A stretch of DNA of 64,000 bases from Octopus vulgaris (GCA_951406725.2 OX597817.1:61256001-61320000), one strand, 5' to 3'. Shown: positions 2,909-59,224, counted from the first letter of the stretch. Notes: generated by a model from the sequence alone, not told the origin. Program-made: numbers and translations.

Positions 2909-3759
2909 ATAGTGTAATAAATAAAATATATGCATACATACATACATATATGTACGTACCTATATCTACATGTATATATACATGCATATATAAATATATA
3001 TACGTGAGTACAGGACACCACAACTAGACGTAGAACTCAACGAGAAACGAAAACGGAAAAACAAGCATGGAACAAACCATTTTTTTACAACAGAAAAACA
3101 GAGTACAAGACAAACTACACAAGGAAAAATCCCCTTCATCAGCTGTCCCTAGTTCAACTCTTTGTCACTGCCAGCCAAAACTACTTCCTTTTTACATTCG
3201 GCCTCCTAACTGTAAACACACTTTTTTTCCCTTGCGCTCGCCAGAATCTTCTCCGTCTAAGCCAGAAAAAGGCTTTTTCGTTTGTTTTCTTGTTTATTTT
3301 TTATTTCTCGTATTGTATTTTCTTGTTCATGTATTTTTATCTTGTATTTTATTTTGTATTTTTATTTGTATCGTTTTTATGCCCTGTTTGTGTTACATTT
3401 TTTCTTTCTTTGTTTTTATCCCTCTGCGAAGTAATTTTATTTTAATTCTCTCGCAGGAAGGGCTAGTTTGACGAGTCATGTTCTGTCCTACCTTCGAAAC
3501 ACGCTAGAGTTGAACTAGGGACAGCTGATGAAGGAGATTTTTCCTTGTGTAGTTTGTCTTGTACTCTGTTTTTCTGTTGTAAAAAAATTGGTTTGCTCCA
3601 TGCTTGTTTTTCCGTTTTCGTTTCTCGTTGAGTTCTACGTCTAGTTGTGGTGTCCTGTACTCACGTATATATAATTATATATGCATGTATATATACATGT
3701 AGATGTAGGTACGTACATATATGTATGTATGTATGCATATATTTTATTTATTACACTAT
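2909..3759. repeat. Long inverted repeat (arms ~2909-3161 and ~3506-3759, ~345-bp spacer) between (TA)n tracts; probable PLE-derived fold-back insert
   Basis: Arms are near-perfect reverse complements (gagtacaggacaccacaactagacg / cgtctagttgtggtgtcctgtactc); CTGATGA in both arms. Confidence 0.9.
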
Positions 3760-5104
3760 ATATATATATATATATATATATATATATATATATATATATA
3801 TATATATATATATATATATATATACATATATATACATATATATGTATGTATGTATGTATGTATGTATGTATGTATGTATGTATGTATGTATGTATGTATG
3901 TATGTGTGTGTGTGTGTATGCATGTTAGAATGTGCATGTATGTATGAATGTATGTAATGTATGTAAACTGAACTTTTACAAGAAGAGAGCTGACGTTGAC
4001 TTGAACGTTTCTGTTTGCCAGCGATCATCGGACTTGGGTTTCTTCGGTCTTTATATGATCGTTGATAAATTGCATTTTTTTTTTGTTCAGTAGGAGTATG
4101 CGGAGCTATGTCAAATAATAATAATCTGTGTGAGAGAGAGCGCGAAAGAGAGGAAAGCATAAAACCATTTGAGGTAATGACGTACATGAAGGCTTATTAA
4201 ACTGAAGCTACTCAACGACCCTGTCCAACTTGTTCAGTCACAACAAAGGCCAAACGTCAGCTCATTCGTTCTATTGTTGTTGAGTAGGACACTATGATGC
4301 ATCTGCTATTTAATCTCGATTTCAGGCTCTCATAAATTTGTCGGTCGAGGTTGACGCTATAATTTCGTATTTAATACAACACAGAATCAAAATTAATCAC
4401 TGGAATTTAGCAAAGTCATAACATTCTGACATGTCTGAAAATATCAGCGAGTAAAACTTTTTTTAAATTTTCAGAGTGTTGCAATTCAACCAAATAGAAA
4501 ACATTCCCTGCTGAAATAGTGTTACGTTACAAGAAAAAAGGACAAAAAAATAAGTCTAATAACAAAGGATTTCATATAAGGAAACAAATGAAAATAAGGA
4601 ATTGTTTACACTATTGTTTAAAAATTCTGAACTATTTGGGGTTTTTTCTGTCGTTGGTCGACGGTGTTGCAGAGGCAGTCGTTTAACCACATCTGCCGTC
4701 CTTAGAGTGTTTTCTGTAGCCTAATATCAAGTAAAGTCTCTACTTATGGACACACCTCGAAGGGAACATAAGTCAATAGGTTCGAAGCATCCACGGAGCC
4801 GCAGACGATTCCAGATATTAAGTACAACTGTGCATATCTGCTTTAAGAATCCTATCCACCGGATTTTCTGTAAGGGTTGGTCTTTCTTAATCACACTGAA
4901 CGCACAAATACGCAAAAATACACATATGCATACTCCTTACACGTGCATATATATATATATATATATATATATATATATATACATGCATATATGTATACTT
5001 ATACATACATTTATATATATATATATATATATATATATATATATATATATATATATATATATATAAATATATATACATACATATGTATATATGTTTGTAC
5101 TGCC

Positions 5105-5700
5105 ACGCAGTATACATACAGCTAAAACAGTCTCAGTTCTTGTCGTTGATATATACTCATTACTTATTTTCTAAAATGCACCATAAATGTTCAATAATTT
5201 TTGGGGACTGTGGTGGCCAGATAAGATGTTCAACTTCACTTTTACTCAGTAACAACTTAGCAGTGGGAATTGTTTACTTGTTTCCAGAAACAGTCATTTG
5301 ACTGCGGCCATGTCTTCACTATTAATTCTGCCATGAAGGGAAACCACTGTGCCAACGGATTTCAAAGATATACCCTCCCACCCCAGATCATCACAGATCC
5401 TCCTCCATGTTCAACTGTTGGAAGAAGGCAGTGTAGATCAAACGCTTTTTTTGGCTGTCTCCATACATATACTCGGCTGGTGGTCGGAAATAAGGTAAAG
5501 AATGACTCGTCCGAGAAAATAACATTCTGCCACTGCTCTAGGGACCGATCCTGTACTTTTTACTCCACTCTAAACTCTTTGCAACGTTTGTTTTTGAAAG
5601 TAGTGGCTTTTTTATTGCAGCCCTCCCGTGAAATCCGGCTTTGTGGAGCTGCCGGCGAACAGTTTCTGTGGAAACTGGGTTCTCGAGGTGGTGATTAAGC
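5105..5700 (-). mobile_element. Tc1-family transposase relic
   Basis: Minus-strand translation gives ..FSDESF..VWRQPKKAFDLHCLLPTVEHGGGSVMIWGG.., the Tc1 'SDES' and 'PTVKHGGGSVMVWG' motifs. Confidence 0.8.
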
Positions 5701-7828
5701 TCTGCAGTATATTATATATATATATATATATATATATATATATATATATATATATATGCACATATGCGACGTAGATATATGTACATATACACGAACGTAC
5801 ACATATACATACACACGCATTCAAGACAGGCTTCTTTCAGTTTCCTCCTATCAAATCAACTGACAACACTTTGGTCGGACAGAGGCTATACTATGTGCCA
5901 CACAGCGGGACTGAACCCAGAACCATGTGGTTGGGAAGCAAATTTCTTACTGCTTATATCTATCTATCTATCTATCTATCTATCTATCTATCTATCTATC
6001 TATCTATCTATCTATCTATATATATATATATATATATATATATATATATATATATGTCTATATATATATATATCATAAACGTATGCACGAGAGGACGAGG
6101 ATCAAAAGGAAGATGCATACGCTTATCTTTAACACACTAAATTGTACAAAACATTCACTACACTCGCTGGTGAACTTGGTCATGGAGACAAAAATGTTTT
6201 CTGCTCTAGGCATTGTAGGGAAAAACATATCCAGCCGAGCATTCTAAAACATTTAAGCAGACCACCATCGAAGGTGTTTTGGTGTAAATTTGCCTCTTCA
6301 CTAGCAGATACACAGCATAGTGATTTGAAATTATGCCATAACTTTAGTTGTTCCTATATATAGAAAGCAGCAAGCATTAGTTTGATTTAAATACATTTAT
6401 TGAAATGTTTACTGGAATCTAGTATAAATACACTAAGCAGCGAGGAACAAGATATGGTTGTATACATTTATTTGTAACACGTTCTGTAAGCTAAACGTAA
6501 ACGCAAAATGCATTCGCTAAGATATTTTACTTTGAGAAAAATCTTCTCCTTAAGTAAAGAAAAGCACGTCGAACCAAGTTACAAGTGACGTCAGTCAACG
6601 GACTATGTTTGCGTGTGAGTGTGTGTGCATGTATATGGATACATAAGCAGTTACGTATCCATTTTGTATGTGTATGTATGTATATATATATATATATATA
6701 TATATATATATATATATATATATATATATATATATATATATATATATATATATATATTTATACATATATATGTATATATATATATATATATATATATATG
6801 TGTGTATATATATATATATATATATATACACAAATGTTTATATATATATATATATATATATATATATATATATATATATATATATATACATGTATATATA
6901 TATGTATATATGTGTGAGTGTTTATATATCTGTATATATATATATTATACACGCGCATGCGTATGTGTGTGTGTGTGAATGCAATGAATGCGTCCCCCGC
7001 TCCTGCCTCTCCCCCCAAAAAAATAACTGGGAAGCTATTAATATATATATATTCATCAAGAGTTCCTCTTATATAATTAGTCCATCATTCATTAATAAGA
7101 AATGCATTCTCCCGAAACTGGTTGCCTCTCTTCTTTCCTTCTTCTTTCTTTCCTTTATTCTTTGTTGCTTTCTTTCTTTTGTTGTTTTCTTTCTTTTCTG
7201 TCTTCCTCTCAAATTAGACTCACTTCTTTGTCTCAATTTATACACAAATACATCTTGCCAATCTACACAGAAATAATGCACACACTCTCACGCGCAACAT
7301 ACACATACGCGCGCGTGTAAACATCCACACATTGGTATTTATGTGTGTGTGAATATATTTACATACAAACGTACGCACATACGCATGCATGTATGACTGT
7401 ATGCATGACTACACGCACGCTTGCGCGCACACCAGATGTGTCTCTGAAGCTTTGAGTCTTTTTCCAGAAAGGCACTTATAACTACCGTAGACACTATTGT
7501 AAATTCGGTATTGCATTGCTATACATCGAATAAGCTGACCTGCCAAACTTTTGGTTTCCCAGATTGAGGAAGACGGTGTCTAACAGCACTTTGACCATAC
7601 CATACTAAACACTGCTTTTTACAGCTGGCTCCTTTGAAGAACGCAGTCGGGATTGAAAAGAACTTAGAAGCTCGCTTTGCAATAAACAGAGAAAAACGTT
7701 ACAGAAACTTATGAACTGCTCCAGACTGGTCATGCATGAACTTGTATTAGCTGAGCATCTAATTTACGCTGACAGAGAAGGCCAGGCCAAACAAATTCAG
7801 CGAGAAGTTCATGATAAACCCCTTTTGC

Positions 7829-8660
7829 GGCAAAAAAAATTTTGTAGAATTCTTATATATATATATATATATATATATATATATATATATATATATATAT
7901 ATATATATATATGCATATAATTTCCAGTTGTTTCCCGCTATATTTATATATAGTAGCGGGACCCGGGAATATTTCACGGAATTAATGGTAAACTTATTGT
8001 CTGAAAACGTTATCCCCAAATCCTCAAAGCGTAGCCTGTGTTGCATCTGTGTGGGAAAACAGTCGCTCATCTGTAACTCATTGGAAATGTAAGATAATGG
8101 AATGCGTTGGTCAGTTAATGTTCTTTATATAATTTATGCACAATCTTATAGACTTAATACGCAGCAATCATAAAATAAATATTGTTATTTTCCCCATAAA
8201 CAAAAAAACATATCATTGTATTTCGGGACGGTCATTTTTTTAATTTTTGTTCAATAAACACACGCACTATATATTTATTCTGCACTCGTTTATTTCTGTT
8301 CTTATTCTAACTCATGTCCATTGTCCAGAAATCTTTCGTCACACGTCAAAAAAAATATCGCCGTACATATGATACAACTTTTAGTTAAATTGCACATATA
8401 TAAATAAACGTGAATGTTTCACGGAATTGCTCTTATACGCATGCGTTAAGTGATAGATGATATAAAAAACTAAGTTCACTTTTCACTATTCATTCACTAC
8501 CGCCATCTCACCACCACCATCACCACCATCACTACCACCACCACCACCACCACAATCATCATCTCTCTCTCCTTCATTTCTCTCTGCCTCTCTCTCTCCC
8601 TCTGCATTTAACCTCACCATAAAAGCATCAGCCCTCTACTAAAATTGTATTTATAACTCT
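7829..8660 (+). repeat. Copy 1 of ~830-bp direct duplication
   Basis: Nearly identical to 10250-11079, from ggcaaaaaaaattttgtagaattc to ttataactct. Confidence 0.95.
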
Positions 8661-58800: not shown

Positions 58801-58974
58801 CTTCGTTTCAGCCAGAGCAAAATCGACGAACAGGGGAGAAGCACTGCGAAACAAACACGCACCACGAAAAAATAGTACTGGAATACCGGAGGTAGAGTAA
58901 TATGCTTTATTAATAAAGCTGCAAATACATCACAAAAATTGTTACTCAGAGTTTAATTCAGAATTGAAACTAAC

Positions 58975-59013
58975 ACTGTCCGACGAACACGAACGTGAAA
59001 CTCTGAGTAACAG
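58975..59013 (+). ncRNA. Minimal hammerhead, CCGACGA variant, in an inverted repeat (arms ~58905-58954 / 58998-59051)
   Basis: ctgt-CCGACGA-AC-acgaac-GT-GAAAC-TCTGA-GTA-acag; same family as 34068. Confidence 0.7.
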
Positions 59014-59189
59014 GGTTTTTTTGTGATGCCTTTGCAGCTTTATTAATAAAGTATATGTGTGTGTATATATATATATATATATATATATATATATATATAT
59101 ATATATATACACACATGTGTGGAACAAGTATAGGACGTGGAACAAGTATAGTGTTATTGGACGCTCAGAAAAGGAAAGAAAGAAGGAGG

Positions 59190-59224
59190 ATTTAACGTTT
59201 CGAACGAAGCTCTTCGTCAGAAAC
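59190..59224 (-). ncRNA. Ultra-minimal hammerhead-like motif (family of 53764)
   Basis: Minus strand: gttt-CTGACGA-a-GAGC-ttc-GTTC-GAAAC-GTT-aaat. Confidence 0.6.

Follow-up and report, generated by a model that had tools for sequence, protein, structure and literature searches.

A predicted split, permuted hammerhead ribozyme among inverted inserts of probable Penelope-like elements in Octopus vulgaris

We analysed a stretch of 64,000 nucleotides from Octopus vulgaris (GCA_951406725.2 OX597817.1:61256001-61320000; hereafter the window, with positions counted from its first letter), a region of 37% G+C that is rich in (TA)n and other simple repeats. Six inverted-repeat inserts in this window, described in an earlier sequence-only reading as a dispersed system of fold-back elements with outward-facing ribozymes, are in our judgement probably the insertion products of Penelope-like retroelements (PLEs) and of short helper-dependent units, most of them with the known minimal type I hammerhead, and the split core of two families, A and G, for which self-cleavage is predicted, is probably the ribozyme of many elements of the Naiad type. 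The fold-back arrangement as first described is real and is an already known PLE pattern; the unusual part is the split permuted motif, a non-circularly permuted fold that has good comparative support, is linked to Naiads of several phyla and is predicted to cleave.

For the insert at 2909-3759 the type I template of the earlier reading proved wrong: it holds no type I motif, GAAAC sits 5' of CUGAUGA, and this permuted order had been overlooked, as had three further permuted motifs at 60060, 60902 and 61745 and the 842-bp tandem at 59.5-61.9 kb. The features concerned are as follows.

2834..3757, no strand assigned: family A insert, flanked by (TA)n runs; the tailed left arm is inverted and shortened and keeps the CUGAUGA block only, the right arm is tail-less
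3457..3531, + strand: split permuted hammerhead of family A, with upstream stem II strand, extra helix P0, cleavage block (predicted cut after 3482), GAAA block and CUGAUGA block
59531..61908, + strand: family G tandem, flanked by (TA)n runs, in which a unit of 842-843 nt is repeated 2.8 times head to tail, without a long coding frame
60060..60132, + strand: split permuted hammerhead of G unit 1, predicted cut after 60081
60902..60974, + strand: split permuted hammerhead of G unit 2, predicted cut after 60923
61745..61817, + strand: split permuted hammerhead of G unit 3, predicted cut after 61766

The copy at 3457-3531 has one stem III mismatch, which is absent from most genomic copies. In the family searches 40 candidates were scored out of 410 to 2,166, and the 30 loci examined are the closest copies, a top-scoring sample; family G appears very young, all 40 scored matches being 100% identical over 171 nt. 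Copies of A and G have their core in the order cut site, GAAA, CUGANGA, with a linker of 2-5 nt from stem I to stem II and, in A, a stem III of 5 bp and a stem I of 6-7 bp, and a descriptor of this split arrangement gives three matches in the window, compared with none in 100 shuffles. A partner of at least 5 bp for stem II, mostly 20-27 nt 5' of the cut, is present upstream in 70 of 80 distinct motifs (0/80 in a control window), and G10.1-C11.1 occurs in 74 of the 80, these 80 being related copies from few subfamilies that include two doubtful matches and are not independent. Directly after CUGANGA, in-register stem II pairing averages 0.2 bp over the same motifs, and the upstream helix beats any downstream one in 24/24 G-like and 58/61 A-like motifs. 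Four distinct stem II sequences occur in this genome (GAAGG/CCTTC, GGCTGG/YCAGCC, GAGCA/TGCTC and GACAC/GTGTC), and the upstream strand is followed immediately by P0, a helix of 5-10 bp with paired changes among subfamilies; stem II diversity and these paired changes are stronger evidence for the split fold than the count of 70/80. At single positions of stems I and III up to four Watson-Crick pair types are found among 12 subfamily representatives, all 12 of which have CUGANGA, GAAA, A15.1-U16.1 and a base other than G at the cut, features that the scan demanded.

The order of the blocks can be read off directly, and from the covariation of their pairing we infer a fold that would run, 5' to 3', through a stem II strand, a P0 strand, a stem III strand, the cut site, a stem I strand, the 2-5 nt linker, the other stem II strand, GAAA, and the second strands of stem III, P0 and stem I, ending in CUGANGA. 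Block orders of this kind were treated by Eckert et al. (2023, PMC10085705), who named the SGC order and showed cleavage for environmental examples, and who assumed that CUGANGA directly precedes its stem II strand. In these terms the predicted fold equals a type-CSG hammerhead opened between A9 and G10.1.

Beyond the window we sampled 400 kb of the genome as 40 stretches, each of 10 kb and placed at a round coordinate, spread over 29 contigs. The strict split descriptor gives a single match there, which looks like chance (shuffle mean 0.05), and similarity identifies six decayed or partial A/G copies. A search of Rfam with the two permuted stretches of families A and G gave no relevant match. 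Contigs from four public runs of uncertain kind cover the G motif, although ends, strand and level cannot be read from contigs. Many diverged relatives in such contigs, whose run kind is a guess, align with 60078-60136 over the ribozyme core only; the sequence comparison suggests that this core is the most conserved part of the G unit. Elsewhere in the genome, a + strand motif at one locus (L253) belongs to an additional split-hammerhead family, which has its own sequences for stem II, P0 and stems I and III, and a + strand match in S-G-C order at another (L184; stem I of 7 bp, stem III of 4 bp) does not resemble A or G and could be yet another family or chance.

Other interpretations of these sequences were discarded. 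Family A is not a degenerate type I hammerhead using an upstream UGACGA, whose first core base is absent in the 30 copies viewed and whose strand serves as P0, and reading the AG that precedes the upstream strand as a splice acceptor fails on several subfamilies that have no AG. No coding helper was found next to A or G: one locus (L294) adjoins the frame of an unrelated long interspersed nuclear element, and another (L309, G000:C28:25431700-25441690) is an 8.6-kb mirror copy with one degraded half that looks like a long-read assembly artefact.

Naiads were reported to lack a canonical hammerhead, with only 'HHR_core' or 'HHR_half_core' flagged in them (Craig et al. 2021, PMC8557442). By eye, however, the split fold is recognizable in at least eight of the published Naiad consensus sequences, three from Acropora, two from Octopus and three unnamed in the excerpt, with four further stem II sequences, and at least seven excerpts in the nematode part of the same supplement have the intact CSG order with the same extra helix. 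The supplement holds 54 Naiads, accessible as excerpts, so that 15/54 is a minimum and the motif may be absent from some Naiads; names were taken from the header after each excerpt and from table order. A 20-letter pattern derived from the published octopus Naiad ends has 280 matches in the genome, compared with none for a control, and the Naiad-type motif was found in 31 distinct copies from 40 loci. At one locus (L352) the split fold lies about 1.1 kb behind DNA coding for a reverse transcriptase (RT) that resembles the published Naiad RT by eye (RVT_1, E 1.3e-5, below the curated cut-off), with no endonuclease seen there, and one GIY-YIG Naiad remnant is interrupted and has no 3' end. On balance we favour the view that, across animal phyla, an active split hammerhead of a seventh topology, opened between A9 and G10.1, stands at the end of many Naiads and their helper-dependent tandem units, and that nematode Naiads use the intact CSG form.

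Several observations weigh against this reading and have to be set beside it. The pairing rate of stems I and III is circular, both stems having been demanded by the scan, and for the upstream stem II the best shuffle equals the observed 0.95, because the 12 representatives hold only three types. Compared with the local Naiad 3' end, families A and G gave no significant match in sequence (best E 0.03) and resemble it by fold only, so that their movement by Naiad proteins is conjectural. Nor was a PLE frame found beside A or G in the loci examined, or any frame there with an N-terminal GIY-YIG, a C-terminal RT and Naiad motifs; a helper must therefore be presumed. Copies do not begin where the ribozyme should cut: no 5' end coincides with the predicted cut among 28 A/G-type and 26 C/F matches, no G array starts there (0/15), and only 2 of 31 Naiad copies do, both in one locus. 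These two (L333, G000:C1:136493699 and 136494301) begin exactly at the predicted cut after (TA)n and are the sole cases among the 31.

The last weakness listed here, a 4-bp downstream stem II after a bulged A, with two G-U pairs, is found in 55/61 A-like and few G-like motifs, and would make the A-like motifs ordinary type-SGC hammerheads. On this weak downstream option rests the main rival: stem II would be formed with the strand directly after A9, and the upstream strand would be an off-switch until removed or displaced. The G-rich strand after the bulged A does provide G10.1-C11.1 in those 55 motifs, PLE hammerheads typically have a bulge at this place (Cervera and de la Pena 2014, PMC4209133), and most inserted copies are uncut. 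However, the downstream strand forms no helix in 18/24 G-like motifs, no in-register downstream helix is visible in the Acropora Naiad excerpts, and the upstream strand ends exactly at C11.1 with P0 immediately next, like the true stem II strand of the nematode CSG forms; we regard the off-switch as improbable. Similarly improbable is that the split fold is a conserved, hammerhead-derived RNA structure that does not cleave and acts as a binding or priming signal for the RT of the element. The lack of a pile-up of 5' ends at the cut would fit such a role, as would the poor cleavage of minimal PLE hammerheads in vitro, for which other roles were left open (PMC4209133), and the break between A9 and G10.1 contradicts the uninterrupted block assumed in PMC10085705; yet CUGANGA, GAAA, A15.1-U16.1 and the non-G cut base recur in every representative, albeit as scan requirements, and by eye the same core features recur in Naiads of several phyla.

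If the split hammerhead does cleave, its target would be the 3' end of precursor or multimeric transcripts. The reaction would proceed slowly or in dimeric form, given that in most inserted copies the sequence continues through the cut site, which implies that their templates were uncut or rejoined. Through P0, on both strands, the far end of stem III is tied to the top of stems I and II, a linkage that may require a dimer if the modelled fold is right; similar strain was described for some SGC examples (PMC10085705).

The inserts themselves fit PLEs closely. Inverted repeats were confirmed at 6/6 sites, with arm identities from about 75% to near-perfect (98% for 2909-3759, 82% for 9217-9784, 97% for 13366-14336, near-perfect for 33993-34139 and 45521-45842, about 75% for 58900-59056), and the claimed location in or next to (TA)n held as well, with (TA)n at one end at least of every insert and at both ends in 4/6, in a window of which 8% lies no more than 20 nt from (TA)5+. 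Each insert has in addition a one-sided 3' tail of about 65-100 nt, which the coordinates given earlier had left out. No coding frame was found in the six inserts, which makes them fragments or helper-dependent units. The remaining five inserts and a decayed PLE 3' end in the window are listed here.

9150..9788, no strand assigned: family B insert, old, arms 82% identical, left edge approximate; degenerate type I motifs at 9670-9757 (+) and near 9317 (-)
13364..14432, no strand assigned: family C insert, arms head-to-head, right arm tailed; type I motifs with long loop II at 13403-13488 (-) and 14214-14299 (+)
33920..34139, no strand assigned: family D insert, short unit of about 150 nt, left arm tailed; type I motifs at 34023-34060 (-) and 34072-34109 (+)
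45521..45923, no strand assigned: family E insert, unit of about 240 nt, right arm tailed; type I motifs at 45612-45654 (-) and 45709-45751 (+)
58885..59051, no strand assigned: older D-related insert with a single motif in the right arm, 58976-59013
21660..22205, - strand: decayed PLE 3' end, with a GIY-YIG endonuclease frame at 21858-22205 followed by a degenerate hammerhead core at 21690

Type I motifs were scanned with a strict descriptor (CUGANGA or CCGANGA, GAAA and NUH in type I order, with GAAAC, a stem I of at least 4 bp and a loop II of at most 120 nt); a first, tighter version gave only one match in the window, because loop II is long in several motifs, often 30-80 nt in this genome. 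The strict version gives 10 matches, compared with a mean of 0.08 (maximum 2) in 100 block dinucleotide shuffles, and 30 in the 400-kb sample, in 17 stretches and with seven of them in one tandem cluster, compared with 0.25 in 20 shuffles. The shuffle comparison that the sequence-only reading had set as a test thus came out in its favour, and so did its expectation of a very large genome-wide load: as motif counts, the sample corresponds to 40-118 strict matches per Mb by bootstrap, about 75 per Mb, or by extrapolation roughly 1-3 x 10^5 per 2.8-Gb genome. Its claim that five inserts carry motifs, with a copy in each arm, stood for families D and E, where both are intact. In C the left-arm motif is intact and the right arm has C15.2 changed to U, in B both are degenerate, and the insert at 58905 has one in the right arm only. 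Where both arms carry a motif the two face outward, as had been claimed, and the opposite-strand pairs of the sample are likewise divergent, head to head, at 4/4 loci. The base of stem II is G10.1-C11.1 in C (left arm) and F, A-C or A-U in D, and U-U in E, the last as in the intact PLE motif of this genome; an intact relative of family B exists at locus L218. Among the single-arm cores proposed earlier, those at 53764 and 59190 are intact, those at 21657, 57553 and 32943 are degenerate and there is no core at 20153, while cores at 10066 (-) and 57110 (+) had been missed.

9971..10074, - strand: type I hammerhead having a stem I of 8 bp and stems II and III of 5 bp each, in a single-arm insert between (TA)n at 9789-9848 and 10274-10333
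57105..57165, + strand: type I hammerhead, strict descriptor match
53764..53798, - strand: family F minimal hammerhead without loop III, one bulged base after A9
59190..59224, - strand: family F minimal hammerhead, descriptor match with intact core

The Rfam check that had been suggested was run: the best 150 of 307 window matches, nearly all of them microRNA matches in simple repeats, include no hammerhead, and a genome search with RF00163, in which 73 of about 263,000 candidates were scored, gave at least six matches, which is not a count. A separate locus of the sample (L193:2307-4513) has seven identical canonical type I hammerheads in tandem units of 353-359 nt, in two head-to-head arrays; it is retrozyme-like and shares the inverted layout of the inserts.

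The PLE origin proposed in the earlier reading agrees with what surrounds coding elements, and its several sequence families could be told apart as A to G. Six genomic stretches around long GIY-YIG frames contain frames of 775 aa, with one of 1,199 aa, and the one 775-aa frame that was scanned has RT and GIY-YIG domains by Pfam; a type I motif lies in the terminal repeat of 5/6 such stretches, an inverted terminal copy of at least 650 nt in 4/6, and the L157 element lies between (TA)n runs. These loci (L157-L162; G000:C1, C21) belong to a young PLE family with intact 775-aa RT and GIY-YIG frames, 4,271-nt tandems and inverted terminal copies, of which many copies of identical score exist on C1. 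The fold-back is the main form of families D (22/26 distinct loci) and E (20/26), and exactly one arm is tailed in 42/42 of these fold-backs. In D and E the 5' end is fixed, 15-45 nt ahead of the core, and no coding part is visible, for which reason they look like short helper-dependent units; no helpers of D or E were found. With an inverted copy, a one-sided tail, 5' truncation and a (TA)n target, the inserts show the features of PLE insertion. The inverted copy, the tail on one side and the bias to (TA)n, together with hammerhead pairs on opposite strands, make up the published PLE pattern and no new kind of fold-back (PMC8557442, PMC4209133). Short non-coding inserts with inverted ends in a TA context might also recall miniature inverted-repeat DNA transposons, whose terminal repeats would have been duplicated into TA sites, with the hammerhead motifs incidental. 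Such an origin is largely refuted already by the variable centres and is contradicted by tails on one side only, by lone arms and tandem arrays, by copies truncated at the 5' but fixed at the 3' end, by the same layout around intact RT and GIY-YIG frames and by a motif excess of more than 100-fold over shuffles; we consider it very improbable indeed.

How the fold-backs arise can be approached through the arms. In D and E the tail-less arm stops at a constant internal site similar to the TA target, and either arm may be the shorter at its 5' end, the tail-less one extending further 5' in 9/42 fold-backs; in some (L045, L099) the arms do not overlap at all. We compared arms by counting minor variants common to both, in place of the mean divergence within and between elements, which was too blunt. 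Such variants are shared at 5/38 sites in D, compared with 1.9% expected for random pairs, and at 31/84 sites in C, compared with 6.0%, values reached in 0/2000 shuffles for either family; the count for E (0/30) is uninformative. One tail, a fixed internal end, unequal 5' ends and shared variants are all explained by two primings on one RNA. The endonuclease of the element would cut (TA)n, one DNA end would prime reverse transcription at the 3' end of the RNA and give the tailed arm, the other would prime at an internal TA-like site and give the tail-less arm, and the two cDNAs would be joined head to head at short overlaps; the motifs would face outward, each arm being a copy of the same RNA made from its 3' side. 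Such double priming recalls the twin priming of L1, with re-copying of the template.

Not everything agrees with two primings. Family C is less regular, with exactly one tail in 16/23; the arms of a D locus (L043) are discordant at a subfamily site; and gene conversion between nearby arms could also yield shared variants. We leave some, lesser probability to the fold-backs having arisen by snap-back of the cDNA, from two separate RNA templates or through later conversion of the arms, possibilities favoured also by the clustering of the D and E centres at short palindromes. Snap-back, however, cannot produce the nine fold-backs whose tail-less arm extends further 5' than the tailed one, and two independent templates primed at their 3' ends would leave two tails, which are seen in 0/42 D/E loci. 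Our literature search on PLE twin priming or inverted target-primed insertion returned nothing related.

Among 14 tested frames of the window, Pfam matches above the cut-off were confined to two, the GIY-YIG endonuclease (21858-22205, -) and, at 55504, a piece of a transposase. The latter is a Transposase_1 fragment (55504-55857, +; E 9e-24). Back to back with the opposite-strand GIY-YIG piece lie decayed frames (22519-23413, +) that by eye resemble the RT of Hydra-clade PLEs and have no Pfam match. Apart from these elements, inverted repeats at 57648-57849 and 58333-58525 (81%), without a hammerhead, bracket decayed sequence, presumably of a mariner-type DNA transposon.

The formation of PLE inverted ends is listed as not understood (PMC8557442), and the counts given above, of one tail in 42/42 and of variants shared by the arms, provide a testable model for it. 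If the split fold is what it appears to be, non-circularly permuted hammerheads would be abundant in animal genomes and missed by searches for types I-III, and the statement that Naiads lack hammerheads would be a search artefact for a large part of the clade, a possible answer to the stated puzzle of PLEs without canonical hammerheads. It would extend permuted ribozymes from rare environmental RNAs to high-copy, recently active animal retroelements, challenge the assumption that the CUGANGA block cannot part from stem II, and supply short natural sequences with a predicted cut site.

Minimal type I hammerheads are known from the pseudo-long terminal repeats of PLEs, where they exist as thousands of scattered copies, some paired on opposite strands, and show low activity as dimers (PMC4209133). 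Ours share with them the core, a short palindromic stem III, the bulge after A9 (family F), thousands of dispersed truncated copies and opposite-strand pairs 100-700 bp apart, but differ in a loop II that is often 30-80 nt long and, in a loose comparison of differing descriptors, in a density of about 75 per Mb, or some 1-3 x 10^5 per genome, as opposed to thousands. The layout of endonuclease-bearing (EN+) PLEs (PMC8557442) likewise includes an inverted 5'-truncated copy, partial tandems, a tail at a single end and a preference for (TA)n; tails are 30-40 nt there and 65-100 nt here, and the arms of D and E make up the entire insert, have a constant 5' end and show no coding part. Naiads (PMC8557442) and our families A and G have the (TA)n target and the 3'-terminal position in common, whereas in A and G a coding frame is absent and sequence similarity to the local Naiad is not significant. 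With the non-LTR retrozymes (bioRxiv 10.64898/2026.07.22.740005), family G and part of A share non-coding tandem units that carry one hammerhead each and are likely moved by PLEs, and the layout of G, with a hammerhead in each unit, is theirs; those elements are defined by type I hammerheads, however, and as neither G nor A is type I, a search of that kind would miss both.

By title or abstract we found no permuted hammerhead in an animal retroelement, most subscription papers being beyond the search, and type-SGC and type-CSG hammerheads appeared in PMC10085705 alone, where the permutations come from metatranscriptomes, metagenomes and one bacterial candidate, whereas A and G belong to animal retroelements; the supplement file has no entry for Octopus, Metazoa or Eukaryota. 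The two sets agree in the S-G-C order, the short linker between stems I and II and an extra helix that joins the outer ends of these stems. In A and G, however, the 5' strand of stem II is detached from CUGANGA and stands at the 5' end, a seventh arrangement beyond the six of that paper. Closest in another respect is the pseudoknot (pistol-like) hammerhead (Zhan et al. 2024, PMC11300833), in which an upstream strand also adds to a helix at the position of helix II; there A9 runs on into G10.1-C11.1, whereas in the predicted split fold G10.1 comes from a separate strand.

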